From Candidatus Babeliales bacterium (GTDB taxonomy: Bacteria; Babelota; Babeliae; Babelales; JANWKD01): a DNA stretch of 64,000 nucleotides. Each line of letters opens with the position of its first letter. Within the stretch, counting starts at the first letter, position 1. A program made the translations under genes and the position numbers. The notes under the pieces were generated by a model. The model had not been told where the DNA came from, made no database searches, and saw only the letters and a list, made by a program, of their open reading frames with translations. Shown piece by piece: positions 3,866 to 63,581 of this stretch. Where the stretch lies: contig CAVXJH010000003.1 in assembly GCA_963762115.1 (NCBI GenBank), positions 522,418 to 586,417 on the forward strand, read 5' to 3'.

Positions 3866-3986
3866 TGTATATAGTATGTTTTACTTAATCATGCAATAAA
3901 TACCTATCTTGCACAGACGCCATTAAAGTAACCCAATTTTAATATTGATCATTGTATGATACTATAAAAGCATAAGAAAGGCTTTT

Positions 3987-5195
3987 ATGGATCACTTACG
4001 CAAAGATTTTCCCATTTTCTCATCATCGCCACAGCCGTTTATTTATTTTGATAATGCTGCAACAACTCAGAAACCTGAATCGGTTATTGAAGCAATGAGC
4101 AATTTCTACCGCACAGACTATGCCACCGTGAATCGCAGTATGTATGCACGAGCAGAAAAAGCTACCGAAAAATATGAAGCCGTGCGAGCACAAGTAGCTT
4201 CTTTTATTGGTGCAGAACCATCAGAAATTGTTTTCACCAAAGGGGCAACTGAAAGCATTAATATGGTTGCAACTGCATGGGGTAGAGAAAATATAAAAAC
4301 AGGCGATGAAATTGTACTCAGTGAGCTGGAACATCATGCCAACTTATTGCCTTGGCAACAGATTGCACAAAAAACGGGGGCAATGCTGAAATTTATTCCC
4401 ATAACTTCAGATGGCACTTTAGCTTTAGACAAACTTACCGAAATTATAACGCCAAAAACCAAATTAGTGAGCATTATTCATGTCTCCAATGCTCTAGGAA
4501 CTCATAATGACTTAGAACCCATTATAAAAGCTGCTCATAAAGTCGGCGCTCGAGTTCTTGTTGATGCAGCACAATCAATTGCCCATCAAAAAATTAATGT
4601 AAGCCTAATGAATCCCGATTTCTTAGTGTTTTCAGGGCACAAAATGCTTGGCCCAACCGGCGTTGGTGTTCTCTATATAAAAAAAATAATACAACCTGAG
4701 ATGCCTCCTGCACAGTTTGGAGGCAGTATGGTTTTCCAAGCAACCTACACCGATGCTCAATGGTTACCAGCGCCAGCTTGTTATGAAGCAGGAACTCCTC
4801 CCATTGCTGAAGTTATTGGCCTTGGAGCAGCATTAGAGTATTATATCAAAAACATTGATTTTACAGCGTTAAAAGCTCATGAAACGGCATTAACCGCTCA
4901 TACTATTGCTGGGCTAGAAAAATTCCCGGAAATACGAATTTTGGGCCCTATAAAGCAACTTAAAGAAATGGGTCATATGGTAAGTTTCACCGTTGAAGGG
5001 TATCACCCTCATGATATTGGCGCCTACCTTGATGCGAAGGGCATTGCGGTGCGGACTGGTCATTATTGTGCTCAGCCACTTGCTCAACGATTGGGAATTA
5101 CTGGTTCAATTAGGGTCAGTTTTTCTTGTTATAATACGATTGAAGAAGTTGATTATTTCCTTGAAATAATGAGAAAATTGTTGGGTAAGTCTTAA
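3987..5195 (+). CDS. sufS: Cysteine desulfurase, SufS family
   Basis: DNAATTQKP, EHHAN, SGHK (PLP Lys) and RTGHYCA (group II catalytic Cys) motifs. Confidence 0.93.
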   Translation: MDHLRKDFPIFSSSPQPFIYFDNAATTQKPESVIEAMSNFYRTDYATVNRSMYARAEKATEKYEAVRAQVASFIGAEPSEIVFTKGATESINMVATAWGRENIKTGDEIVLSELEHHANLLPWQQIAQKTGAMLKFIPITSDGTLALDKLTEIITPKTKLVSIIHVSNALGTHNDLEPIIKAAHKVGARVLVDAAQSIAHQKINVSLMNPDFLVFSGHKMLGPTGVGVLYIKKIIQPEMPPAQFGGSMVFQATYTDAQWLPAPACYEAGTPPIAEVIGLGAALEYYIKNIDFTALKAHETALTAHTIAGLEKFPEIRILGPIKQLKEMGHMVSFTVEGYHPHDIGAYLDAKGIAVRTGHYCAQPLAQRLGITGSIRVSFSCYNTIEEVDYFLEIMRKLLGKS

Positions 5196-5261
5196 AATTT
5201 TATAAACATAAATTTTATTATCTCTCGGCCCTATGCGGGCAGCACAAAGGTATTGCGTGCC

Positions 5262-5614
5262 TCCGCCTACGCTTATCCAGGCCTTCAGGCTTGGCAAGCT
5301 TCGTCGGACAGGCAATATACCTTTGATACAAGGGCATCCGCCTTCGCCAAGGCTTCGGCGGACAGGCCAACCCTTCGAAGCGTTAGCGTAGTAGGGCCGC
5401 GCGAATATACACCACTCACTCATTGATGCCTTCAGCATCAAAATTCCAGGTGCACGTCGCACTACCGGACTAACTTATTTATAAAAATTTCGCCATGCAA
5501 CATCTATAAATATTCCGTTGAGCAAGACTGTTAGACGATCTGCAACATCTTTGCGAAGGTTTTCCTGTCCTTCGTAGCTTGCCAAGCCGGAAGGCGTGGA
5601 TAAGCGTAGGAGGA
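5262..5614. repeat. GC-rich palindromic repeat cluster (CCTGTCC-ended family)
   Basis: 5262-5312 and 5564-5614 are inverted copies (45/51); shorter copy at 5334-5367; additional hairpin at 5371-5396. Confidence 0.8.
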
Positions 5615-5719
5615 TGCCTAGCCGGCACGAGGCTTATTTGACAAATTGACTAAAAGAGATTAATTTTAAAACATAATAGTTATTAATAGTTATAATAATT
5701 ACAATTCAGACTATCAGAT

Positions 5720-10504: not shown

Positions 10505-10919
10505 TGTCATTGCGAGCCAACATTGTTGGCGTGGCAACTCAGCCAATAAAATTCTATTAATGAGATCCCTATGAAACAACCCGCAGTGTACATTATAACA
10601 AATAAAAAAAATGGAGCTCTTTATACAGGAGTAACTTCTAGTCTACTGCAAAGAATTCATCAACATAAAAACAATATAATTGAAGGATTTACAAAACAAC
10701 ATGGTTGTAAATTACTTGTCTATTATGAGCTTTATGACAACATGTTAAAAGCAATTGAGCGTGAAAAACAAATAAAATCAGGATCAAGAATAAAAAAATT
10801 AAAACTAATTGAATCAGCAAATCCTTGTTGGTTTGATTTGTTTGAGCAAATCAATAAAGAAAATTAATAGAATTTTATTGGCTGGGTTGCCACGCCAACA
10901 ATGTTGGCTCGCAATGACA
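10505..10919 (+). mobile_element. REP-bounded GIY-YIG nuclease element, copy 1 (putative autonomous)
   Basis: 57-bp inverted repeats 10505-10561 / 10863-10919 with 1 mismatch, enclosing only a GIY-YIG ORF. Confidence 0.75.
10571..10867 (+). CDS. Stand-alone GIY-YIG nuclease, 98 aa
   Basis: VYI...LYTGVT..L..R..QH...GFT...LVYYE...AIEREKQIK...NP.W.DL pattern; Tyr, Arg, His and Glu catalytic candidates present. Confidence 0.92.
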   Translation: MKQPAVYIITNKKNGALYTGVTSSLLQRIHQHKNNIIEGFTKQHGCKLLVYYELYDNMLKAIEREKQIKSGSRIKKLKLIESANPCWFDLFEQINKEN

Positions 10920-35967: not shown

Positions 35968-36384
35968 AAATGTCATTGCGAGGCACATTGTGCCGTGGCA
36001 ACCCAGCTTATAAAATTCTATTTATTTTTCCTTATTAAGTTGTTCATATAAATCAAACCAACAAGGGTTTATTGATTCAATAAGCTTCAATTTTTTTGTT
36101 CTTGATCCAGACTTTATTTGTTTCTCTCGTTCAATTGCTTTTAACATATCTTCATAAAGCTCATAATATACAAGTAATTTACAACTGTATTGCTTTGTAA
36201 AGCCGTCAATCATATTATTCTTGTGCTGAAAGACTCTTTGAAAAAGATTAGAAGTTACACCCGTATAAAGTGCACCATTTCTTTCATTTGTCATAATATA
36301 TACAGCTGCTTGTTTCATATGAATCTCATAGTAGAATTTTATAAGCTGGGTTGCCACGGCACAATGTGCCTCGCAATGACATTT
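35968..36384 (-). mobile_element. REP-bounded GIY-YIG nuclease element, copy 2 (putative autonomous)
   Basis: Perfect 53-bp inverted repeats 35968-36020 / 36332-36384 enclosing only a GIY-YIG ORF. Confidence 0.75.
36022..36318 (-). CDS. Stand-alone GIY-YIG nuclease, 98 aa
   Basis: 79/98 identical to 10571-10867 with no gaps; true start is MKQAAVY. Confidence 0.92.
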   Translation of the reverse strand: MKQAAVYIMTNERNGALYTGVTSNLFQRVFQHKNNMIDGFTKQYSCKLLVYYELYEDMLKAIEREKQIKSGSRTKKLKLIESINPCWFDLYEQLNKEK

Positions 36385-44335: not shown

Positions 44336-44381
44336 TAAATAGTCAATGCAAATGTGGCAAGTAAAATATCAAAAATCTAAA

Positions 44382-44519
44382 TGTCATTGCGAGGAGCATT
44401 GCGACGTGGCAACCCAGATTATAATGTTCTAATAAAAAAATCTTTGAAAAAGTTTAAGGAAAATCAGTAGGATTTTATATGCTGGGTTGCCACGCCAACA
44501 ATGTTGGCTCGCAATGACA
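44382..44519. mobile_element. Non-autonomous REP doublet of the GIY-YIG element family (138 bp)
   Basis: 44481-44519 is identical to 10881-10919; left end is a variant REP. Confidence 0.75.
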
Positions 44520-44591
44520 CTCCTGTTATTAATATTTTTTTTGTTATAGCGCAAGCACTTTGTATTTCAAATTTTTTTCTTCAAACTCGCA

Positions 44592-46216: not shown

Positions 46217-47101
46217 ATGCAAATCAAAAAAATAGTTTCTCTCTTAAGAGCATGTATCATACTAATCTTCTGGCAAATGCCCTATGCTTATTGTCAAGAT
46301 GTTGGTGATATATTAGAAGCACAAATGGGTGGACCCAATCCCTTATTTAGTATTGGTCATAACGTACAAAAAAAACATCATGGCATGCTACGCTCTACCT
46401 CATTCTATGAAGAACGAGACCAAAGCCAATCATTGTTTGTTTCATATAATGGTATTTTTTATGGCATTACCGACAACTTTACGATGTATGCACGCTTACC
46501 CTGCGTCAGAGAACGTAAAACATCAAATTTAAAATCAACGGGGATTGGCAACTTACAAATACAAGGAGAATGGGCATTCTATAATGAACGGGTTGACGAT
46601 AGCTTTAATCAAGTTACCGTTCTAGCAGCTATTCGTTTACCAACCTCCACCGTTGAATTTCCTGGTCTTGATACCTTCAAAGCAACTAATTTCCTTTTTG
46701 GGCTTACAACCAGTAATTGGTCCGAAAAATGGCATCTCTATAGTGATTGTGGTTACTTAGTATTTACAACGCATCAACATTTCAAACTAGGAAATGCTTT
46801 TGTTTATAATTTAGGGCTAGGACGCATCATTGGGTCACGCCCTTTAAAAGATGACGGCATTCTTTATTTTGAATTAATCGCTGATATGAACGGCCTCTAT
46901 GAACAACCAAGCATCCTGGATAAAAAAGATGTTTTCAAAACGGGTGGCCATGTTCTTTTTGTCGGACCAACGTTTCGCTTCTCTGTCCCTTCGTTTGTTT
47001 TGCTCGGAGGATTACAATACCCAATTAGTCAACGAATAAAAAATCCACTTTTTACCAAAACAAATTATAAAATGGGAATTTCTCTCTCATGGCTTTTTTA
47101 A
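46217..47101 (+). CDS. Putative outer-membrane beta-barrel protein
   Basis: Alternating beta pattern, YGITD, GIGN, C-terminal Phe. Confidence 0.65.
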   Translation: MQIKKIVSLLRACIILIFWQMPYAYCQDVGDILEAQMGGPNPLFSIGHNVQKKHHGMLRSTSFYEERDQSQSLFVSYNGIFYGITDNFTMYARLPCVRERKTSNLKSTGIGNLQIQGEWAFYNERVDDSFNQVTVLAAIRLPTSTVEFPGLDTFKATNFLFGLTTSNWSEKWHLYSDCGYLVFTTHQHFKLGNAFVYNLGLGRIIGSRPLKDDGILYFELIADMNGLYEQPSILDKKDVFKTGGHVLFVGPTFRFSVPSFVLLGGLQYPISQRIKNPLFTKTNYKMGISLSWLF

Positions 47102-47949
47102 TATCGCTCTCTACCCTTTTTTTTATTTTTATGCTTTCATGGGCACCAGTATCATGCACTGATACCAACAATAAAAATTCCTTATTACAAGGGCCTGGGC
47201 CGATATTTAGTTTGGGTCACAATATTTTTCCCAAAAATCAACTTGTTGTAGAAGAAGAATTATTTTTTGTAAAAATAAAGCCAAACAACAACTCACTCTT
47301 GATTAACTTCAACAATATATATTACGGCATAACCAATCGATTAAGCATTCTTGTTACTATACCAGTTATTCTTAAAGAAATAAAAATCCCCCATAAACAC
47401 TCGCGCGGCTTAGGCAATCTTATAGCACAAGCAGAATATGCATTTTACGAAAAAAAAGAAGTCGATGCACTGTTTCAATGGACCGTACTTGGTAATGTTG
47501 TTATTCCCACCACACGTATTGTAGCTAACACCGATGTTATTACCACGCGAGCTCCAAGCTTTTTTTGCGGAATTACCACTAATAATTTATCTTCAGTCTG
47601 GTATACCTACAGCGATATTGGTGTATTTTTTACTACAAAAAGACATCAATTCAAACTGGGCAATCAACTATGGTATGGATTAGGCGGTGGAAGAAAATTA
47701 TATACCCACAATAAACTTACGCTAACGGGTCTGATTGAAATGAGCGGTATTTATGAAAGACCTGATAAAATTGGAAAAAAGACTGATTTAAAAACAGGCG
47801 GCAACCGTTTATATTTAGGGCCAACATTACGAATATATTATGGCTCTTTAGTATTGATTGGCGGGTTTCAATATGCAATTGCTGATGTTTCTCGAGAAGA
47901 TATTTCATTTAAATACCGAAGCGTTTTTTCAGCATCATATGTTTTCTAA
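47089..47949 (+). CDS. Putative outer-membrane beta-barrel protein, tandem paralog
   Basis: Shares P.FS.GHN, YSD.G, KTGG..L..GPT.R with upstream gene; C-terminal Phe. Confidence 0.65.
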   Translation: MAFLISLSTLFFIFMLSWAPVSCTDTNNKNSLLQGPGPIFSLGHNIFPKNQLVVEEELFFVKIKPNNNSLLINFNNIYYGITNRLSILVTIPVILKEIKIPHKHSRGLGNLIAQAEYAFYEKKEVDALFQWTVLGNVVIPTTRIVANTDVITTRAPSFFCGITTNNLSSVWYTYSDIGVFFTTKRHQFKLGNQLWYGLGGGRKLYTHNKLTLTGLIEMSGIYERPDKIGKKTDLKTGGNRLYLGPTLRIYYGSLVLIGGFQYAIADVSREDISFKYRSVFSASYVF

Positions 47950-48089
47950 CGATGTTTAATACATGATAAAATAACTTTTACTTAATGTAAGTTCGGTTAA
48001 ATAGTAAGCATAAAACAAAAGATTTGAAACCTGTAATGTCATTCCGAGGCACATTGTGCCGTGGGAACCCAGATCATGATGTTCTATTA

Positions 48090-48183
48090 GAGCTTATCCG
48101 AAACTTAAGTATCATAAAGAAAACTATGCAAAAGAAAGAGGATGTCATTCAGAGTTCGCGTTTTGCGCGGACGTGGAATCCAG
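48090..48183 (+). repeat. IS5-like MITE left end followed by a REP copy
   Basis: tta|gagcttatccgaaa as at 63260; REP at 48143-48183; no right TIR found. Confidence 0.55.
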
Positions 48184-48659
48184 TTTAATTAGGTTTTTAT
48201 ATTGTCATTCGTTCCAATTCGTGACAAATTGTCAGGATCTGAGAGCAACTATATTATAAAAAATAAATTATTGAATCCAGTTTAAATTAAAATTTTATTT
48301 CATTATTTAAGACTTTTGTGTACAAAAAAACCTAATTAAAAACAACAAAAAACTCACTTTTTCTGGTGATTAAATTCATAGTTTTTTCTATTAATATAAA
48401 GATCTTGTAATGCATTATCCAATCAGTGTTTTCAGCGAGTTAACCTGTAAAATTATTTCTATTGATTTTTATAAAAATCTATATAGAGTTACCATCTAAT
48501 AATTCTAAAAGCTACGGTTAGTAATGAAGCAAGCAAGTTAAACACTATTACAATCGTAGGAGTATTCTATGTTTATTCATATATAACGCATTTTTAATTA
48601 ATTTTTTTTATTCAAAAATACATTTTTTATTTAAACAAAAAATCGAAAGTACATTCACT

Positions 48660-49238
48660 ATGAAGGTAACATCAAAAATATTATTACTATCTTTATTCGC
48701 TATTCCTTTTGCACAAGCAATGGAAGAACTTTCTTCTGGTAAACTTACTCAGATAAAAAAATCGTCATTATTTGCTACACATGATGTTGGTGAAATAGAT
48801 CTTTTTCATAATGATAAAGGATTCCATGTTGTTCACAATGACGAAGTTCATTCCATAGATAAACTTTCCGTAGACCCTGTTTTAAGAACTCTTAAACATA
48901 AACAACTTAAAAAATTCCAAAAAATTGGTTATATTCAAGTAAAAAAGAATAACCATAATGAATTTTCTCTTGTATCAAAAGTAAGAGGAAATGGCGGTGG
49001 CGCTGGCGGAGCAACAGCAGGTTTCTGGGCAGGAAAATGGGTTACTCATGCGGTTGCTCAAACTGTTTATGCACTGGCAGCTACAGGAACTACCATAGTA
49101 ACTGGAGGAAATCTTGCGGCTGGCGCTGTTGTTTGGGCGTCATTACAATCTACATTTGCATTACCTGTAGAAGCAGCTAGTAATGTAATAGGATGTGCCG
49201 CTGGTATTGCTGGTGGTGCCGCTACGGGTCTTATTTAA
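48660..49238 (+). CDS. Secreted protein with internal di-Gly motif and Gly/Ala-rich hydrophobic C-terminus (bacteriocin/toxin-like)
   Basis: Signal peptide AQA followed by MEE; KVRGNGG; glycine-zipper-like tail. Confidence 0.7.
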   Translation: MKVTSKILLLSLFAIPFAQAMEELSSGKLTQIKKSSLFATHDVGEIDLFHNDKGFHVVHNDEVHSIDKLSVDPVLRTLKHKQLKKFQKIGYIQVKKNNHNEFSLVSKVRGNGGGAGGATAGFWAGKWVTHAVAQTVYALAATGTTIVTGGNLAAGAVVWASLQSTFALPVEAASNVIGCAAGIAGGAATGLI

Positions 49239-49257
49239 ATAAGGAGATATAATATCT

Positions 49258-49350
49258 ATGTGGTATTGGTATGAATTAGTTATGATTGGACTTTTATCAA
49301 TGATAGTAGTTTATTATATAAAATTATATTTATGGGAATATAAAAAATGA
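49258..49350 (+). CDS. 30-aa single-TM peptide (absent from ORF track)
   Basis: AAGGAG RBS at 49241; MWYWYELVMIGLLSMIVVYYIKLYLWEYKK. Confidence 0.6.
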   Translation: MWYWYELVMIGLLSMIVVYYIKLYLWEYKK

Positions 49351-49493
49351 CCCAAAATATGCATATCTTTATTGCATTCATTATTTTATTTATTCTTTGG
49401 CATCTTCTTTTAAAGAAACATTTCTTTATACAAAAAGAAGCTGATTTTTGGCAAGAATATTTTAAAGATAAATTTTTTTAATATACAAATTAA
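49347..49493 (+). CDS. 48-aa single-TM peptide (absent from ORF track)
   Basis: ATGA coupling to the previous ORF; MTQNMHIFIAFIILFILWHLLLKKH... Confidence 0.55.
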
Positions 49494-49512
49494 TCAATAT
49501 CTACAATAAACG

Positions 49513-49549
49513 TTCCCTACTCTATCAATATCGTTTATAGAGTAGGGAA
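49513..49549 (+). terminator. Hairpin / terminator
   Basis: ttccctactctat-N11-atagagtagggaa. Confidence 0.65.
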
Positions 49550-49657
49550 TTTTGTGCTTAAACAACATCTTATGCGCCAAATAAAAATCAAGTGACTGGA
49601 ATAATTCTTCATGATATTATAATTAAGAAAGATACAAAAACCCACATTAGGGAATTA

Positions 49658-50002
49658 ATGATAACATTGTTTGAATCGTTCCTATCGCAGATAGAAATAT
49701 TAGCAATCGGCTTACTACTTTTTACCTTAAAGCATATTATTAGCGGCGATGAAAGAGCAATGCTTGATGCGTTGCCGGATAGTTTTAGAAGAGATCTCAA
49801 AAACAAATATTACCAGACATTTTTTATAGTGTTATGGTTTGGTTTTTTTACCTGGCTTGGCTATTACATTCAAAAGCCGCGCTATGGTATTTGGAGCTAT
49901 TTATTTGCTTATGATAATAAGTTGTTTTGGTTAATACTATTTTTAACGATTGTAACACGTGTCGGAATGTGGTTATATGATCGCTTTTATCCTACTGATT
50001 GA
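49658..50002 (+). CDS. Small 3-TM membrane protein
   Basis: AGGGA RBS before ATG 49658; three hydrophobic helices. Confidence 0.6.
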   Translation: MITLFESFLSQIEILAIGLLLFTLKHIISGDERAMLDALPDSFRRDLKNKYYQTFFIVLWFGFFTWLGYYIQKPRYGIWSYLFAYDNKLFWLILFLTIVTRVGMWLYDRFYPTD

Positions 50003-50029
50003 AACGATCAATCTCCTTCTTAAATAAAG

Positions 50030-50074
50030 ACTCCTCACTCTATGGATATCATTTATAGAGTGAGGAGTTTTTTT
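50030..50074 (+). terminator. Intrinsic terminator
   Basis: actcctcactctat-N11-atagagtgaggagt followed by T tract. Confidence 0.75.
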
Positions 50075-50347
50075 GTTGATAAGTAATGCACATTTTGAAA
50101 CAAAATCAAACAGATGCTATCAAAAATCTAAAAAATTTATATCTCACACACGAATTTAATAAACACAATGCTCTAAAATTGTTTGACAGGAAAAATAGTT
50201 TGTTTTTTATAAGTATTTAATTTATTAGAACATTATAATCTGGGTTCCCACGGCACAATGTGCCTCGGAATGACATTTCTGTTATTAACGTTCTTTTTTT
50301 AGCGCAAACAAGCCTTATCTTAAATACTTTTACTTCTTGAATTTACG

Positions 50348-53071
50348 TTAAATAAGATCATATTCCTTGCATCGTCGATTAATTGAAGAACGATTTACGC
50401 CCAAGAATGCCGCAATCTTATTCTGGTTTTTGAATTTATTCCACAAGATGTTCATAATCTTTGGATCTTTTAATGCTTTTTTGCCCAATCGAGCTGCTTG
50501 CGCCAATGCCGGATCAGTTATTGAATAGGTCTGATCAAACTCCATCGAATCCTCAACATTGTTCTTTTTTGATTTGTGCATTAAAAGTTGCTGAATTTTT
50601 GTTTTAAATTGGAACAAACTCATTGGGCGATCATCAATCAATATATTCTTTTCTCGCTCAGTGAGCTCTAAGAGAGTTTTGAACGTTGACGAACGTAATG
50701 CTTGTTTGGTGAAACCATCAACAAGATCATGCATTTCTTCACTGGCAAGATTGGCAATAGAAGGCATGCTCAACGTTGTTTTTTGCAATTCTTTAAAGAG
50801 GCATGGCGAAAATCTTCCCTCTTGCACCAAAGCCTCAATATTCAAATGTGATGAAGCAATAATACGCACATCGCTTACAATCCGTTGATCACCTTTATAC
50901 ACAGTGTAATAACCATATTTTATGAACTCAGCTAACTTTTCCTGTAATTCAATATCAAGCAAATGAATATTCTGAATAAACAAGGTGCCCACATTATGTA
51001 ACTGTTCCAACATTGAAGGCTTTTGAGCAAACCCTAATAACGGATTAATACCAAAAAGCTGTATGGCAATATCAGTGTTTTTGAGCGCCTGTAAGCTCAC
51101 CACCTGCAATTTTTCACGCAAACTAATATGATGAATAATCTCAACCGTTGGCAATAAATCGGCTTCTGGCATTTGCAGCAATAATGCTTTTCTGCTTAAA
51201 GCAATTTTAAGCAACCCAATTTTGAAATTAAGCAACTGACTTCCTGAACCGGGAATCAACTGATTAATCAATTGACCAGATTTGGTTGTTTCTAAATATA
51301 ACAAATAATCCCACTCAGATGGATTTTGCAATAAATCAATTTGCTTTTTAATAACATCAGCAATTTCAGGGTAGTACACGGTAATGATAATAGTATTATG
51401 CTCAAGACTGGGAATACCAACCAAAATCAGCTTATTTCCTTGCGCATCGAGCCCAAAACTATGTTGCGTTGCTTTATAATTTTCAACCTGCTCAACAAGC
51501 TGCTTACAAACTTTTGCCAATGAATGGCCCATATGAGCATTCAAATCAACATTGATAAGCTCTTTTGCTGCCTGATTACCAAAAGTAAATCGTCTATTTT
51601 TATAAAATAAGATGCCAATTTTTCGTTGACGGCTTGAACGCAAGAAAGTACGAATACTTTCTTTATATTGATTAATTTCCTGATGTTTTTGGAACAACTC
51701 TTCACGCAGCTCTTTTTCTTGAGCAATAAGCAAGGTAAGATTCCTGTTTTGGAGCAAGTGGATGATATTTCCCAAATAACTGGCAAAAACGAGCATTTCA
51801 TCACGTTCAACGTTACTGAAAAATTCATTAGATCGCCCATCACGCTCAACAATGATATAGGCAATTAATGTTGCATGTTCATAGATTGGCAAAAAGATGG
51901 CTGCATTTATGCGCTCAAGAAATTGAATTAACTCACGATTAATTTTGTTTTCTTGATAAAAGTTATTAAAAACAATTTCATCATAAATTAATATTTTATG
52001 CTGTTTAATTGCTTGTACAATATCATGAGTAATTTCATTATTACCATTAATACACCGCTCAACAGTCACTTCTCGCGATGATAACTCATTTTTTTGTTCA
52101 TTTGATTTTGTGTGATTTGCCAGGGAACGAATATATAAATTGGTACAATTTGCCTGTAACCCAAAAGCATCCTTAAAGAATAGTTGGGTGAGAATACTCA
52201 ACTCGGGGACAGAGTTGGTGTAACTTAATTTTTCAAGCACATTTTTAAAATCATCAATAAAATTAAACGTTTTTGCAGCTTGCACATGATTTTGGAAATT
52301 CAAAAATCTAAGCCCCATCACTTTACGCATTGCATGGTAAATAGCAAACGTGAGAAGTAATGTTGAAACACTAGTTATACAATATAAATAATTATTAGCC
52401 GTTACATTTAAATACATTTTTGTAACGATTATTAAAGTTTGTATTGATTCTGTTAATAAATAAGGACATAAAAGAAAGGTAACTAAAATCGTAAGTTGTT
52501 TTTTTAATATCTTCGGAAAATTAACTTGATAAAGATTTTTTAATGTTAAAAAAATACTAGGCAAAATTAAAAAAAATAACACATAAAAGACGATGACATT
52601 CATCATAGTGAACTCAAATTCAGAACGCCCATGAACAATATCAAAATGAAAAAATGCAGAATAAAAAAAATACATTGAAAATATAAAACTAAATACTAAC
52701 AACGTTTTTTGACGTAAGTTAATTTTGTATTTTTTATCAACAAGGCTTTCAACAAACAAACTTAATGATTGAAATTGCAAAACATTAAATGCCCAGCCTA
52801 ATCTAATAAAAAAAACTATATAACTATAATCCAACAAAGGATACCATAATTCCCTAAATAATTTTATTATCCAAACAAAATCACCAAAGGCGCCATTAAA
52901 TAATAAAGCTAATAACAAATAAAGAGGCGTAGAAAGATTTTTGCTTCTTAATGCTTTAGTAATTAAAAAAAACAAAAAATATAACTTTGCAAAAAAAGCA
53001 ATAGTTTCAACAAAAAATAGAAATTCCAATCCCTTAACAAGTGACCAAAAAAACTCTAATAAAATTATCAT
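50348..53071 (-). CDS. Multi-TM sensor fused to degenerate sigma54-activator-like AAA domain and HTH
   Basis: About 7 TMs; GTLFIQNI..L...LQ.KL, DVRIIASS, GRF...LF; C-terminal AAFLGVNRSSI HTH. Confidence 0.8.
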   Translation of the reverse strand: MIILLEFFWSLVKGLEFLFFVETIAFFAKLYFLFFLITKALRSKNLSTPLYLLLALLFNGAFGDFVWIIKLFRELWYPLLDYSYIVFFIRLGWAFNVLQFQSLSLFVESLVDKKYKINLRQKTLLVFSFIFSMYFFYSAFFHFDIVHGRSEFEFTMMNVIVFYVLFFLILPSIFLTLKNLYQVNFPKILKKQLTILVTFLLCPYLLTESIQTLIIVTKMYLNVTANNYLYCITSVSTLLLTFAIYHAMRKVMGLRFLNFQNHVQAAKTFNFIDDFKNVLEKLSYTNSVPELSILTQLFFKDAFGLQANCTNLYIRSLANHTKSNEQKNELSSREVTVERCINGNNEITHDIVQAIKQHKILIYDEIVFNNFYQENKINRELIQFLERINAAIFLPIYEHATLIAYIIVERDGRSNEFFSNVERDEMLVFASYLGNIIHLLQNRNLTLLIAQEKELREELFQKHQEINQYKESIRTFLRSSRQRKIGILFYKNRRFTFGNQAAKELINVDLNAHMGHSLAKVCKQLVEQVENYKATQHSFGLDAQGNKLILVGIPSLEHNTIIITVYYPEIADVIKKQIDLLQNPSEWDYLLYLETTKSGQLINQLIPGSGSQLLNFKIGLLKIALSRKALLLQMPEADLLPTVEIIHHISLREKLQVVSLQALKNTDIAIQLFGINPLLGFAQKPSMLEQLHNVGTLFIQNIHLLDIELQEKLAEFIKYGYYTVYKGDQRIVSDVRIIASSHLNIEALVQEGRFSPCLFKELQKTTLSMPSIANLASEEMHDLVDGFTKQALRSSTFKTLLELTEREKNILIDDRPMSLFQFKTKIQQLLMHKSKKNNVEDSMEFDQTYSITDPALAQAARLGKKALKDPKIMNILWNKFKNQNKIAAFLGVNRSSINRRCKEYDLI

Positions 53072-53479
53072 AAAACCTTGCTATGAATTAAAGTAGTAAT
53101 TATACTATTCTTAGTTTTCAACATAATGTTCAACTTCAAAGGTAATAAATCATGTTAAAAAGTAAACCATTTATATCACTTTTATATTATATAAGTAAAG
53201 TGGGCTGTAGCGTGTTATTTACTCTCGTACTATTCCGATGGCCACCTGCAACATAAACAAGAATATCAAAAAATAACGATTGCGACAAATTGCTTGTGTT
53301 TTGACTACATCGGACTTGTGATAATGATGCAAAAAAATTAGCTAGTATGATTTGTCGTACTAGCTATTTCGATGAATTAAATCCTATTATTAATCAATAT
53401 TATTTTACTTCTAACTAATATTTCACAGTTTTAAATCTGCAATCGCAGTAAAACTTCCTTCTTGCCAGGACCAAACATC

Positions 53480-56400
53480 ATGAAGCACACCCTCAACCAA
53501 GCGGCAATTCTGCTTATCCTACTTTCATTGCATTCTCTGCATGGCATGGAGCAACCAAATAATCATGAACAACCAACCTTTCAGTGCAAAGTTCCCTTTG
53601 GCAATGATGAATTCCCCGATGAAATTCCTGTAGAACAAAACGCCTATCATACAACACTTCTCTATAACGAGAATGACACTTCCTATTATTATGAACCAGA
53701 TCCTGAAAGACCCGGAACGTTAAAGCGAAAAAAATATGATGCAACCTTTGATCTTATATATCACAACGAACCCCCTCCACCTCCATCACCGAGACAAACA
53801 AGAGCACCATTGCCTTATCTTAGCGATCGCCAAAGCAGATTAAACAGCAGCAGCCACAGTTTTGCTCAAAGATCAGAATATTATGCCAGAAGAGATTTTG
53901 AGATTGATCAGTATTTGCATGCATATAATCAATTTGATGAACACGGCCAAGCCATGCTTGCTCATGAAAATAAAAAATTACATGAACTTGCCATGCGAAG
54001 AATAGCCTATGAAAATCAACCACCCTTCAGACAACGAGTTAAAACAAGTCTGAATATCATAGGCGAAAAAATTTCATCAACAAAAGATCGATTCAGTTCA
54101 TGGTTGCGAGGGCCTGCAACCGATGATAATCCTGAAAAAGAACTCGATGAACGCGTAACAACCAGAAATGATTATCAGCGCGCAACCGCTGAGCAAACAC
54201 AGCAATCAACTTCACATCATCGTGATTATATAAATGCTTGCTTAGAACAACAATCACCTCGAAAATCACAAGACCCATTCCACATCGAAACTGTCTTAGA
54301 AAAGTTTGAAAAAAAAGCTGCAGAACGCGCTCAAGAAGATGCGCAAAAAGAAGAAAAATTAGAAGAAAAGAGAGAAGCCGTCTTTGCTCCGACGGGCATC
54401 ACCTTTATCCCCGGTACTTCATCATCAAGCACATCGGAAAGTGCCACCTCAACAGCAACTGATAATGCAGAATCAACAAAAAAGCCTTCGCTATTTCCAG
54501 CAGAAAAGCCAAAAGAGCAGGATAAAGATAAAAAGCCGCATGGTATTCCTCAAGAGATAAAAGAAAAATATGAAGAATACAAAAAGCAAGAATCAACGCT
54601 GCACGATAAAACAGAAAAATCGGCTCAAACGCAACGATCTGAATCATCAAATATAACTGCCATCACCAAAGAGCCAATGATTGATGTCATTAATCAAGAT
54701 TCAAAAGCATTTATAGCAAAGCTCGATCTGCCACGCCAAGCTTCTGGCGGCAACAGCAGTTCATCTACGCGATCTTCACCACCTCCGCCAGCGGCAACAT
54801 CATTGCCAACATCACCGCTCAGCCAAATCAATAGTTATCAAGCGTATGCATCAACCGCACCAACAAGAACATCTTCTGCGCAATCAAGTTCACTGCAATC
54901 GCAACGACAATATTACAACAATCAAATTAGCCAAGCGGCTCGCAGAGAATCGAGTACTGCACGCGCTTGGGGCGGAAGTCAAGAAAGAAAGCAGCTTGAA
55001 GCACAGCGGAGTAAAGTTGAATCTGCAATTAGATACCAAGAAGCTCTTGAAAATTATTCTCGGGGCACCGAATATGGAGAGTATTTGAAAAGAGTTAGAA
55101 AAATGCGGGAAGCAGGCCTTAATCATGCTAGATATATGCAATCCACCAACGATAACTCTGCTCAATACAAAAGAAAAATTAGGTATTTATTAAAAAACGG
55201 TTTGATTAGCGAAAAAGAGAAAAAATTTATTAATGATGCTTGGAGTGAAGAAACAAAAAAATCGGAAAGACCTGATTTAGTTTGTCTAAGCCCCCTTAAT
55301 GCAAATACAGTGCACAGTTCTGATTCTATATACGAAACGGTTCTTCGCGGATGTAACGAAAAAGTAAATCCACTGTACGAAAGACAAAGTAAATGGGAAA
55401 AAGAAATATTATTACCTATTTTGCGAGAAAATAATTTTGACCAAGCAAATAAACTAGTATCAAAAAAAATAGATAGAGAAGAATGGTTAAAAATCAGACG
55501 CAAATTAGAAAAGCATCATTCAGATATTAGTAAAAGTACAATTGCTCGAAAAAAACAGGATGAAATTACAAAGAAAACAGATGAAGAGTATAAAAAAATT
55601 GGTTACACTGAATGGTTTTTTTCGTGGGACAAATACGGTAAAATACGTGCAATAAAAAAAGAAGAAGCTTACAATGAATACCTTGATGAAATTTCTCATA
55701 AAAAAAACTTAGAACATCAACAGAAACTTGCAGCTGAAAAATTAGAACGCGAACGACAACAAGCAGAAATTGAACGTCAGCTTGCAGCAGAACGTGCTGA
55801 GCAAGAGCGCATCCAAAAAGTAGTTGAACTTGCACAAAAAAAAGAAGCAAATGCAAAATTAGTTGGTGAAAAATTAGAATATGAAGCAAAGAAAATTCGC
55901 TTACAACAAGAATTTGAACTTGAACAATCGAAAAAACGATTAGAAGCAATCACGCGAAGAATTAATGCTCCGCATTATCAACGAGAAAAAGAAGATTTTT
56001 CTCCTGCAACCCCACAACCAACCTTCGATCAAATCGAATTAATCGTTGAACCTGCACCATCATTTTCATTGCAAGATATTCTTGCTCAACCTGCTCATGA
56101 TTTCTTATCAACTGGCCGTCATGAAACACAACGAACTGATCCAGAAGTTATAACAGAACTTATTGCTGATCCTACAACACCACACAATATTGTTGAACTT
56201 TTGGAGCGAGCACAATTTTTGCAAAACAACGTTGATGATAAAGCACTCAATGATTTATCATCAACAGCAACTGAATTAATTTTGTATGGTGAAATTATTT
56301 CAAAAAAAATGGCCGAAAGCCGCTTTGCTCGAAGCACAGAAGAATCTGAGCGACTTGACGCATTAAAAATAGAAATAGTAAGAATTTCCTCATTTATTCT

Positions 56401-57763
56401 TGATTGCATTGGCATTGCCCATGAAGAAATGAAAAAAAAGCGAGCAGAACATTATGAACTCTTTAAATTTGTTTCAGAACATCCGATTGAGTCATTAAAA
56501 ATTGTAACACCAATTCTAGCTCATATTACACAAAAAATTGTAAGGTTAGCAGTAGTTCTCGCTCCCTACGATGATGCTGGCCCTGATCTTTTCATTCAAA
56601 ATCTTACTGACGGTACTATTTCTGATCTTCAAAAAGAATCTCTTGATGAATTAACCGCACTTGTTGATGCTTCTAGCAAATCTGTTACTGATTTCCTCTG
56701 GCATACATCACGTCGAGAACAATTTAAAGGTGGTATTAATTTTGGCTTTGATTTAGCAGCACAACATCTAATCCTTAAATCATGCGCAATGCTCAAATCA
56801 ACATTACGCACGAATTTTATTCAAGCTAATGTATTGCAATCAGTTGCAACAACAGCTGAAGAACTGGCTACCTTGGAAGCAACTGCTGAATTGGCTTTGC
56901 AACAAAAGCAATTGGTGCTGGCTATTGAGCATGCTGTCGAAGGCGATCTTGCTCAAACAGCTGAAAATGTTGGGCGAACTCAGCGAGTTAATAAAATCCT
57001 TGATGCTGCAACAGAGTTTTCACAATCAGAAAAAGCTAAAGAAATTTTGTCACGATTAGAAGGTGGTGTAAAAAATACTCCATTGCCTCAAAGACACGCT
57101 CCAATTAGAATCCCTGAAACAGAACTCCCCCAGATCAAAGTACATCTTGAACGAACAGTTGCACATTTAGAGACTTTATATGATAAATCAATAATAGATG
57201 AAGCAAAATCCATTTTAAAATTTGATAATGATAGAGTTCTCATAAAAATGCATGAACCCGAAAAATTGTTAGAATCAACTATAGAAGCCATTCAAAAAAT
57301 TGATAGTAACCCAAGATGGAAAGACTTTAGATTTGATCCTGCAAAGAATGGTGGTTGCAATATAACTTCAATAGAAGAGGCTATTGCTGGTATAGCAGCT
57401 GAAGAACAAGAGTTTCTACAAAATTTGGTCCGTGAAGCAACTGGCAAAGGAGAATTTATTGATCCTGCCGGGAAAATTTGGGATGTTAAAACAGCAAAAT
57501 CATATGCTTTAAATGGTGAACATATTTTTAATACTCAAGGCAAAAAAGAATTTTTAGCATCTCTTGAAAAATCATTAACAAAAGATCTTAATGAAAATCT
57601 TATAGTAAATATATCTTATCTTATAAAAACGGAACATGGTGCACTATATGATCTTCTGCGGAATCTACCCAAATCTAAATTGGAAAGAATTATTATAATT
57701 GATGCAATAAATCCGATGAATAGTAAAACAACTTTTGAGTTATTAAAATATTTAGGAGTATAA
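53480..57763 (+). CDS. Large secreted polymorphic-toxin-like protein with C-terminal PD-(D/E)xK-like nuclease
   Basis: Signal peptide followed by GME; low-complexity and coiled-coil body; C-terminal E..A...EFID...WDVK motif. Confidence 0.7.
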   Translation: MKHTLNQAAILLILLSLHSLHGMEQPNNHEQPTFQCKVPFGNDEFPDEIPVEQNAYHTTLLYNENDTSYYYEPDPERPGTLKRKKYDATFDLIYHNEPPPPPSPRQTRAPLPYLSDRQSRLNSSSHSFAQRSEYYARRDFEIDQYLHAYNQFDEHGQAMLAHENKKLHELAMRRIAYENQPPFRQRVKTSLNIIGEKISSTKDRFSSWLRGPATDDNPEKELDERVTTRNDYQRATAEQTQQSTSHHRDYINACLEQQSPRKSQDPFHIETVLEKFEKKAAERAQEDAQKEEKLEEKREAVFAPTGITFIPGTSSSSTSESATSTATDNAESTKKPSLFPAEKPKEQDKDKKPHGIPQEIKEKYEEYKKQESTLHDKTEKSAQTQRSESSNITAITKEPMIDVINQDSKAFIAKLDLPRQASGGNSSSSTRSSPPPPAATSLPTSPLSQINSYQAYASTAPTRTSSAQSSSLQSQRQYYNNQISQAARRESSTARAWGGSQERKQLEAQRSKVESAIRYQEALENYSRGTEYGEYLKRVRKMREAGLNHARYMQSTNDNSAQYKRKIRYLLKNGLISEKEKKFINDAWSEETKKSERPDLVCLSPLNANTVHSSDSIYETVLRGCNEKVNPLYERQSKWEKEILLPILRENNFDQANKLVSKKIDREEWLKIRRKLEKHHSDISKSTIARKKQDEITKKTDEEYKKIGYTEWFFSWDKYGKIRAIKKEEAYNEYLDEISHKKNLEHQQKLAAEKLERERQQAEIERQLAAERAEQERIQKVVELAQKKEANAKLVGEKLEYEAKKIRLQQEFELEQSKKRLEAITRRINAPHYQREKEDFSPATPQPTFDQIELIVEPAPSFSLQDILAQPAHDFLSTGRHETQRTDPEVITELIADPTTPHNIVELLERAQFLQNNVDDKALNDLSSTATELILYGEIISKKMAESRFARSTEESERLDALKIEIVRISSFILDCIGIAHEEMKKKRAEHYELFKFVSEHPIESLKIVTPILAHITQKIVRLAVVLAPYDDAGPDLFIQNLTDGTISDLQKESLDELTALVDASSKSVTDFLWHTSRREQFKGGINFGFDLAAQHLILKSCAMLKSTLRTNFIQANVLQSVATTAEELATLEATAELALQQKQLVLAIEHAVEGDLAQTAENVGRTQRVNKILDAATEFSQSEKAKEILSRLEGGVKNTPLPQRHAPIRIPETELPQIKVHLERTVAHLETLYDKSIIDEAKSILKFDNDRVLIKMHEPEKLLESTIEAIQKIDSNPRWKDFRFDPAKNGGCNITSIEEAIAGIAAEEQEFLQNLVREATGKGEFIDPAGKIWDVKTAKSYALNGEHIFNTQGKKEFLASLEKSLTKDLNENLIVNISYLIKTEHGALYDLLRNLPKSKLERIIIIDAINPMNSKTTFELLKYLGV

Positions 57764-57764
57764 T

Positions 57765-58112
57765 ATGTCACTTGTCATTGATTGGAAAAATAAAACAATA
57801 TTACAATGTTCAAACGGTATTATTTCCGCATTAAATGATGCCCTATTGGATCTTATCTATGAAGAGAATTTATCTTTTAATAAAGATATTGAAAAATTAA
57901 TTAATAGATTAGAAACAGCTTCCAGAGGAATTGGTTTTGATCTTGCTGACTATTTACATACACAAGAAGATCTTAAGATTTTTAAAGATTTGGTAAAAAA
58001 GGGAATAGATAGATTGCATCAAGAAATTCCACCATTACCACCAACAACAACGGAACGACTGGAAAGTTTTTACAAAGGCTTAGTAGAAGCATGTAAAACT
58101 TTTCCGAATTAA
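57765..58112 (+). CDS. Putative immunity protein
   Basis: Starts 1 nt after toxin stop; AGGAG RBS lies inside the toxin 3' end. Confidence 0.6.
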   Translation: MSLVIDWKNKTILQCSNGIISALNDALLDLIYEENLSFNKDIEKLINRLETASRGIGFDLADYLHTQEDLKIFKDLVKKGIDRLHQEIPPLPPTTTERLESFYKGLVEACKTFPN

Positions 58113-61901: not shown

Positions 61902-63259
61902 TTGAAAAGGCTTATTGATACTCATCTTCTCACGTGGAAAAATGATGAATCTCGAAAGCCCTTACTTTTAAGGGGCGCTCGACAAATAGGAAAAACATTT
62001 GCCGTACGTATTTTAGGCACCAATTTTGAAAATTTTATTGAAATTAATTTTGAACTCACCCCTGATGCAACATTACTTTTTGACAAAGATCTTCAACCCG
62101 AACGACTTATCAGAGAACTTTCTCTCTTTGTCGGCAAACAAATAATTCCGGGCAAAACATTATTATTTTTTGATGAAATTCAAGCTGCACCAAAAGTTCT
62201 TTCTGCTTTACGCTATTTTTATGAATTAATGCCATCTCTTCATGTGATTGCAGCAGGATCTTTATTAGATTTTACCACAGAAGAACTTGGCATTCCTGTC
62301 GGTAGAGTTATGTCGCTTTATATGTATCCCATGTCATTTATCGAATTTCTCTACGCGCTAAAACAAGAACTTTTAGTGGAAGAAATTCTAAAACATACTA
62401 CAGAAATGCCATTAAGCGAACCTATACACCAAAAACTACTATCATTTCTTGGAGAGTATTTAGCTATAGGAGGCATGCCTGAGATTGTCAAAACTTGGCA
62501 AGAAAAAAAGATATATTTGCCTGCTTTAGCTTACAACAAACACTTGTTGACACCTATCGACAAGATTTTAATAAATATGCAAAAAAATTCCAAATTAAGT
62601 ATTTAAACCTTCTTTTTGATCATGTTCCTTTACGCTTGGGCAAAAAATTTAAATATAGTGAAGTGAGCAGTGATCACCTGAAAAGAGAATTGGCTCCATG
62701 CCTTGATTTGCTCGCAACTGCTGGTGTTGTAAACAAAGTTAGATTCAGTGCCGGCAATGGAATTCCCTTGGGTGCACAGGTTGACACGCAGGATTTTAAA
62801 GTCATTTTTCTTGATATAGCATTAAGTCAGGTTATTCTTGGTCTTGACTTAGGCGCTTGGATAATAAATCCATTGCAACAATTTATCAATAAAGGCGAAC
62901 TCGTAGAAGCATTTGTTGGGCAAGAAATGTTAGCCTATGAAAACCCTTATAAAAAAGCTTCACTTTTTTATTGGCACAGAACTGAACGCAATAGCCAAGC
63001 CGAAATTGATTATCTTATTCAACAACAAGGAACCATTATTCCCATTGAGGTAAAAAGTGGCAGCGGAACAACACTTAAAAGTATGCAATTATTTTTAGAA
63101 AGTCATCCCAACTCACCCTATGGTATTAGATTTTCTACCCTTAATTACTCAGTATTTCAAAAAATACATTCGTACCCGCTCTATGCAATTGCAAAGGTTT
63201 TATTAGAAAACGCCAATTCATTCTCTGAAAACCATCAAAAAAACAAGCATTTAAACTAA
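61902..63259 (+). CDS. AAA+ ATPase (AAA_14) with DUF4143-type C-terminus, -1 frameshift at about 62504-62510
   Basis: GARQIGKT, FDEIQ, GGMPE in frame 0; EIDY...PIEVKS in the -1 frame; A_AAA_AAG at the junction. Confidence 0.8.
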
Positions 63260-63482
63260 GAGCTTATCCGAAAATTAAAAAGATTTGCCTCAAAAAGAAA
63301 TGTACTAAGAAAGTAATACGGTGTCATTCAGAGCGCGAGTGAAACGAGTGCGTGGAATCCAGTCTAATAATTATTTTCATTTTAAAGACTGGATCACTAC
63401 GGCACTTCGTGCCTCATGATGACACTGAGCAGGCTATTATTCTTCTTACCTTGATTAGAATTTGGAATTTTCGGATAAGCCC
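63260..63482. mobile_element. MITE with IS5/IS1031-like ends containing a REP doublet
   Basis: 17-bp TIRs (16/17) gagcttatccgaaaatt / aattttcggataagccc, TAA on both flanks; REP doublet at 63321-63425. Confidence 0.7.
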
Positions 63483-63581
63483 TAAAAAAGAGATCTATAA
63501 TTTCTACTTGTAATTTAATTATTTTTATATATACTATTATATATATGGAATTTAGTTATTTTAACCTGAAAAGGACCTGTA

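Follow-up and report, generated by a model that had tools for sequence, protein, structure and literature searches.

At the junction of two resident genes in the genome of a Candidatus Babeliales bacterium lies a small block of DNA bracketed by inverted repeats, and it probably represents a putative toxin/immunity cassette with an extra membrane gene that was inserted at this junction, the repeat arms being leftovers of two separate elements of the Ssn (GIY-YIG) type and not the ends of a carrier. The present evidence does not bear a carrier reading, and the repeats are of a kind already known. More worth following, as the better lead, is the cassette family: its precursor protein is unmatched in the libraries searched and spread across the Babeliales, and the other cassette loci examined are not REP-bracketed.

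Layout of the locus and its site in relatives

The genome (G000) is 1.53 Mb in size with 34% GC, and the window, which is the whole stretch of 64,000 nucleotides analysed here, forms the end of its contig C3. Features of the locus are given in Table 1.

Table 1. Features of the bracketed block and its resident neighbours (window positions).
Feature	Position	Strand	Remarks
Left resident gene	47089..47949	+	286 aa; no Pfam match; L080 ortholog 61%
Whole insert relative to empty site	47950..50347	.	overshoots the arms by 85 bp and 70 bp
Left REP/SRM-type arm	48035..48088	+	type-A end: TGTC tag, hairpin and CCA tail, the last truncated by MITE
IS5-type MITE, left half	48089..48200	+	TIR-bounded family; own REP arm at 48143-48184; no right half, no second TIR
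Precursor ORF	48660..49238	+	192 aa; signal-peptide-like start; ~90-aa conserved domain; type-1 tail
Micro-ORF, MWYWYE type	49258..49350	+	30 aa, single-helix membrane; candidate immunity component
Micro-ORF, MTQxxH type	49347..49481	+	44 aa, membrane; start overlaps stop of 30-aa ORF; candidate immunity component
Terminator-like hairpin after three-gene cassette	49513..49549	+	z -6.8
Membrane protein ORF	49658..50002	+	114 aa; candidate immunity gene, additional or orphan
Terminator-like hairpin with T tail	50026..50072	+	second hairpin in block
Right REP/SRM-type arm	50224..50277	-	end type A; ~25 nt of usual inner spacer
Right resident gene	50348..53071	-	membrane-anchored, sigma-54-activator-like; PF00158; present in 183/261 genomes

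The 52-bp inverted repeats described in an earlier note on this DNA were recovered, with 48035-48086 matching the reverse complement of 50226-50277 at 50 of 52 positions, and the four ORFs which it placed between them (a precursor gene, two micro-ORFs and a membrane gene ending at 50002) are all present. Nuclease and transposase families match none of these ORFs, in agreement with its description of the cargo as free of a nuclease. The membrane gene stands as such, but the three transmembrane segments assigned to it became two in a crude hydropathy scan, while the MITE end seen abutting the left repeat is real, its first base being 48089 and not 48090. A promoter scan scored below shuffle level and a search against Rfam gave 0 matches. 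The two terminator-like hairpins are 72% alike; their being cassette recombination sites was rejected, as other cassette loci show no similar hairpin family.

The MITE half beside the left arm aligns to a complete 225-bp MITE at window 63259-63483. No second terminal inverted repeat (TIR) was found in the region at ≤4 mismatches, leaving the left half only, and a related TIR bounds a complete IS5-family transposase (DUF4096 and DDE) in the related genome G001 (L241). The complete MITE is composite, with IS5-type TIRs around a REP doublet (window 63259-63483, G000 C6:585261-585491 and G001 L242-L244), and is present as several copies in two genomes. There is also a further palindromic MITE-like family, often adjoining REP arms (window 5259-5617; G000 C6:394240, C6:430230 and C3:513780).

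At the equivalent site in one relative (L080), the flanking genes, whose proteins are 77% and 61% identical to those of the window, overlap at their stop codons with neither repeat nor cargo, and the insert is therefore taken to be 47950-50347. In G001 the junction consists of a gap of ~300 bp in which other variants of the repeat are clustered; both the cargo and the 286-aa gene are missing there. The site is thus empty of the cassette in both relatives; the earlier note had reasoned that the operon standing here without the repeats would speak against a part for them, and this arrangement was seen in neither, both lacking the operon. Repeats at the 3′ end of the sigma-54-like gene family occur in three relatives (G001, G003 and G004), and in G003 two precursor genes sit just outside an intact doublet.

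Sequence reads were also considered. Run X2, from a closer strain whose flank pieces are ~93-99% alike, covers both flanks and enters the left arm (47365-48064), with little or no cover over the cargo; as no contig joins across, it is not counted as evidence. Run X1, which may derive from the source organism, matches the cargo in parts at 99%+, and run X3 contributes one 252-bp piece. The precursor has its closest homolog at 76% and the membrane gene at 67%, and for both the longest contig listed is 2425 bp, near the size of the insert; should this be one contig broken at repeats, transport would be favoured.

The repeat family and its paired arms

Elsewhere in the window, two arm pairs (10505-10919 and 35971-36381) each enclose a 98-aa single-domain GIY-YIG gene, both genes matching PF01541 above cut-off. 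They are the two copies in the genome, both intact-looking and flanked by inverted YGTC-tagged hairpins, with the closest relative (83%) found in a Candidatus Babeliales bacterium (L112). As set out in the accessible text of Chenal et al. (2025, PMC11893778), the Ssn family has the layout repeat-ssnA-repeat, SsnA being a site-specific single-strand nuclease. Features in common with that Ssn/SRM system are a gene of ~98 aa with a single GIY-YIG domain between inward-facing YGTC-tagged hairpins and the many gene-less copies, and in Neisseria the Ssn repeats are described as clustering beside variable membrane-protein genes, a likeness to the window locus (PMC11893778). However, the hairpin is longer here and the published SRM string is absent (PMC11893778): its degenerate form has 0 sites in G000 and matches neither window arm. 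The repeats are therefore filed as putatively Ssn-like by layout and domain, and not by the published string.

A second likeness is to the CGTC-family REP dimers, which, in the portion of Di Nocera et al. (2013, PMC3733652) available, share the TGTC/CGTC tag, stem-loop and CCA tail, the opposite-orientation dimers and the presence of DNA inserted between partners. There a dedicated transposase was not found (PMC3733652), whereas here the spacers are partly derived from the nuclease gene and there are two end types.

A regular-expression search identified 90 repeat copies genome-wide, 10 of which, both window arms included, carry exactly this CC..GG core, a minority variant beside the main exact core of 12 copies. 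What the earlier note called a private variant is therefore private within the window but not in the genome. Nor is the match between the arms exceptional. Among the 11 A-type arms, 50/52 or better is reached in 16 of 53 unlinked pairs, and the same level is attained by 36 of 290 unlinked pairs when all 25 close copies are taken, so a match of 50/52 is ordinary for the family. The strict repeat pattern was found in 4 of 261 genomes.

Arms come in two tail (end) types, A and B, and it is in their pairing that the window arms stand apart. Counting the main family only (other sub-families account for 12 further pairs, and a few partners escaped the pattern), there are 24 inward-facing pairs: 21 short doublets of A with B, the two nuclease elements of B with B, and the window pair, which is the only A with A. 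The short doublets span 127-218 bp and all 21 pair unlike ends. In 8 of the 20 testable cases the spacer is similar to the nuclease gene at p<0.05, with arm A on the start-codon side, and the doublets look like internal deletion derivatives of the nuclease element; on that resemblance, the family would spread without its gene. Repeat clusters with a neighbour within 3 kb number 6 of 53 against 4.7 expected for random gene junctions, and two clusters at such a distance are thus at chance level.

The two window arms are not a cognate pair, as their end pairing is not the normal one of the family and they are not each other's nearest kin. The left arm has its nearest copy on another contig (C5:90280), from which it differs at 1 position in 54, and it differs from the right arm at 3. 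The right arm in turn has four other copies closer to it (2 mismatches) than the left arm is (3). Neither a B arm nor a remnant of one was found within the block, and no target duplication of >4 bp flanks the arms, only 4-bp repeats being present. Outside the arms the insert has a further 85 and 70 bp, and the corresponding lengths at an ordinary doublet are 46 and 72 bp, a comparison made against a distant empty relative (L080). The DNA inside the right arm resembles other spacers at p 0.047, a value which a single spacer accounts for, and a decayed nuclease gene at that position was rejected (p 0.87). A second copy of the arm-cargo-arm unit was not found in G000 or in the cassette loci examined.

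The ordinary doublet referred to, at window 44336-44591, is at a site which is empty in L080 (gap of 8 bp against 256 bp), the extra DNA outside its arms being the 46 and 72 bp given above. The outer flanks of many copies look weakly alike, so the true element ends may lie outside the hairpins.

Origins of the bracketing

On the preferred explanation, the cassette would have arrived at the gene junction by a route not needing the repeats, repeat doublets would have settled on both of its edges as they have around a glycosyltransferase gene, and an IS5 insertion together with deletions would then have removed the inner B arms. That glycosyltransferase gene (C3:507401-508537) is a resident which sits between two intact doublets, and its G001 ortholog (64%) also has arms on both sides, so inverted arms on the outer sides, at a distance of 1.3-1.6 kb, can come about without transport. 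Signs of an insertion hotspot are also apparent, in that three other arms or doublets in the genome are interrupted by other mobile elements or have them directly behind (a Tn5-like transposase, an IS110 transposase and another MITE). REP sequences are known as targets of insertion sequences (Tobes and Pareja, 2006; PMC1525189), and the accessible part of that work has in common with this genome the insertion of mobile elements in or beside repeat doublets, although complete insertion sequences are involved there and an IS5-type MITE half with a gene cassette here. It is the non-cognate arms, their chance-level spacing, the bracketed resident gene, the hotspot signs and the cassettes without repeats which favour separate accretion. 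Against it count the need for two inner arms to be lost, the finding that lone arms elsewhere in the genome are mostly of the B type and the lack of a significant nuclease-gene remnant inside the right arm, and the unique geometry of two A arms with identical cores is not fully explained by it, at least not directly.

The cassettes without repeats come from searches for homologs of 48660-49238 and of the micro-ORFs. None is REP-bracketed outside the window's own locus among the loci examined (54 with 1.5-kb flanks, some overlapping, 11 with 7-kb flanks and 30 micro-ORF loci), contrary to what passenger carriage would suggest, though this is a weak control since most cassette genomes lack the repeat subfamily and the comparison is effective in G000, G001, G003 and G004 only. 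A non-REP inverted repeat of 93 bp (91%) brackets a 10-kb precursor-cassette array in another genome (L231 in G254, 2413-2503/12415-12507).

It was proposed in the earlier note that the REP/GIY-YIG system can carry passenger genes. In its specific form, an Ssn element would have captured the cassette between its arms and been moved as a unit by the nuclease acting in trans, a possibility we regard as improbable. It draws on the inward-facing arms with identical cores, the empty sites in relatives, the two intact-looking nuclease genes and the short doublets which, as apparent deletions of nuclease elements (8/20 spacers), spread without the gene, and also on an arm pair beside a nuclease gene at locus L114 which encloses another gene. 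However, the end pairing is the wrong one and the arms are not nearest kin, there is no second copy of the unit in the genome, half a MITE lies inside it, and SsnA is shown, in the accessible text, only to cut single-stranded DNA, with transposition or a likeness to mobile elements put forward there as a hypothesis (PMC11893778). That text reports no passenger genes in Ssn elements (PMC11893778), and among 110 loci here an extra ORF (≥70 aa) is present in 0 of 22 doubly flanked GIY-YIG elements, that is, those with arms within 400 bp on each side, which span 383-694 bp, 11 others being longer. Inspection of five GIY-YIG loci, three of them of longer span, revealed near arms previously missed in four, L187 being the exception; the REP detector still misses some arms, which makes its negatives soft. 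Passenger carriage is thus unsupported, given the non-cognate arms, the unbracketed cassettes and the 0/22 count. The broader proposal, that Ssn/SRM elements are true mobile elements with passengers and that the block is a cargo-carrying example delivering a Babeliales-specific cassette, is judged just as improbable; if it were true, the locus would show directly, at the level of the genome, gene transfer driven by a GIY-YIG nuclease acting on single strands. The long arm pairs of G001 were rejected as carriers, these being neighbouring doublets or arms around a resident gene. The L114 locus, from Nitrospina, has at 3957-5282 a nuclease gene, a doublet, a further gene and an inward arm in series, and represents a repeat-bracketed neighbour gene.

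The other reading in the earlier note was that a doublet at an insertion hotspot had been split. The busy junction stands, with other doublets interrupted and repeats at the neighbouring gene in relatives, but a simple split should leave unlike arms and the absence of a B arm from the block counts against it. A modified version, in which the cassette and MITE split a single doublet on arrival and recombination with another copy afterwards turned its B arm into an A arm, is unlikely, albeit the least so of the alternatives for the bracketing. It would account for both arms sharing one minority core (10 copies, the main variant having 12), for the repeat cluster at the empty site of G001 and for the left arm being cut by the MITE at a TTA. 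Conversion should nevertheless make the arms nearest kin, which they are not, no B arm or remnant is left in the block, and the arms of G001 are other sub-variants. Slightly more improbable than transport by Ssn would be an IS5-family element which entered the left doublet bringing the cassette, by one-ended or composite transposition, and then lost its right end. An IS5-type TIR is indeed positioned directly at the left edge of the cargo, but it is that of a MITE family, 225 bp long and equipped with a repeat doublet of its own, there is no right TIR, and other cassette loci lack such ends in inverted-repeat scans. We therefore retain separate accretion as the probable origin of the bracketing.

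The precursor family and its downstream genes

The precursor family occurs in 88 of the 261 genomes of the phylum, often in tandem, and a search at E≤1e-10 returned 1017 representative clusters, a count which the low-complexity tail may inflate. Its members are built from a signal-like start (125/158 by a crude rule), a conserved domain of ~90 aa, a Gly-Gly (residues 112-114 in the window precursor) and a Gly/Ala-rich hydrophobic tail, with an xGG(G/P) junction in 150 of 161. The tail is predicted to form two long helices (mean pLDDT 85, pTM 0.53). No match was obtained in Pfam, NCBIfam, PHROG, PADLOC, PDB or Foldseek, the NCBIfam and PDB-sequence matches being weak and below cut-off and Foldseek giving none at E≤0.001 against PDB and viral structures. 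A precursor search of genome contigs gave none and one of viral contigs a single marginal match of 26 residues. No description of the family was found in open-access text, including a term search of Babeliales genome papers.

There are two main tail types, and the tail is swapped at the Gly-Gly junction, with sister N-domains that are 83-99% identical carrying tails only 29-31% identical. In a tree built from 106 N-domains over 93 columns, with bootstrap values not fully settled and with 55 of the 161 proteins left out for length or an unclassified tail, tail type is unclustered and at least 16 tail changes are forced. G000 has a second family member at C7:16272-16778 (L249), degenerate-looking and without repeats, whose locus has 71-77% DNA identity over ~830 bp to loci of G001 and G004.

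The genes downstream follow the tail. Both micro-ORFs are found behind 11 of 22 type-1 tails and behind 0 of 19 type-2 and 0 of 12 unclassified tails, although the relatives counted are not independent. Behind type-2 tails there are mostly different small membrane ORFs. The 30-aa MWYWYE micro-protein is conserved behind type-1 tails in other genomes, while the 44-aa MTQxxH family occurs in 42 of 261 genomes, with 20 of its best 30 loci linked to a precursor and 10 orphan. As regards the membrane gene, its two homologs (67 and 73%) start at the ATG at 49658, giving a protein of 114 aa for which no family match was found. A complex prediction for the tail with both micro-proteins gave no answer (score 0.00).

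Swapped tails, tail-specific downstream genes and orphan partners are characteristic of polymorphic toxins with cognate immunity, and by this pattern the cassette is likely to be such a toxin with its immunity genes. It has in common with those systems a conserved N-terminal part, a swapped C-terminal tail and a cognate downstream gene, as well as orphan downstream genes and tandem arrays; it differs in its length of 170-260 aa, its hydrophobic tail, its two micro-protein partners and its lack of a library family. The precursor would be exported by Sec and cut or hinged at the Gly-Gly, after which its hydrophobic hairpin would attack the membranes of related bacteria, with the cognate micro-proteins blocking it. 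Class II double-glycine bacteriocins and microcins also have a Gly-Gly before a Gly/Ala-rich hydrophobic core, here of 75-80 aa, and small membrane genes downstream, but their leader is short, whereas the Gly-Gly here comes only after ~112 residues, behind both a Sec-like signal and a folded domain. Double-glycine bacteriocins undergo C39 processing according to the available portion of PMC11798529. A C39 peptidase/ABC exporter was found in 0 of 5 genomes by a search whose control matched in 7 of 14, so any Gly-Gly processing would be without a known enzyme. With the junction internal and no C39 peptidase in the five genomes, membership of this bacteriocin class was rejected.

It is possible, if rather doubtful, that the cargo instead encodes a membrane effector secreted against the protist host, or a small membrane complex with its subunits. 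The Babeliales are intracellular and 44% of the genes of one isolate are given signal peptides in the accessible text of PMC6561590, so a signal peptide says little in this group and a host-directed role is possible; the lack of a C39 system is also in keeping with it. However, the tail swapping, the tail-specific downstream genes and the orphan micro-ORF pairs are the pattern of toxin and immunity and not of structural complexes. If the cassette is a toxin-immunity system, strictly intracellular protist parasites would be fighting their kin. The precursor family is compact, was found in a third of the searched Babeliales genomes and, if a toxin, would offer a small, pore-former-like scaffold that is easily tested, while its partner genes of 30-45 aa are tail-specific, usually missed by annotation and exist also as orphans.

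Precursor genes lie ≤6 kb from a sigma-54-like gene in 5 of the 50 genomes listing both, against a rough expectation of ~0.9, two of the five sharing a genus (window 50348-53071, G003 L058, G004 L059, G081 L230 and G055 L250). An orphan micro-ORF pair is found at the 3′ end of a second sigma-54-like paralog in G001 (L057:10118-10341). The sigma-54-like gene may regulate the cassettes or mark a place where they integrate. Divergent from it in the window (53462-58112) is a gene for a secreted-looking protein of 1433 aa with a 115-aa gene directly behind; homologs of the former in related genomes match only partly and it has no Pfam match, and the pair looks like a large polymorphic toxin with its immunity gene.
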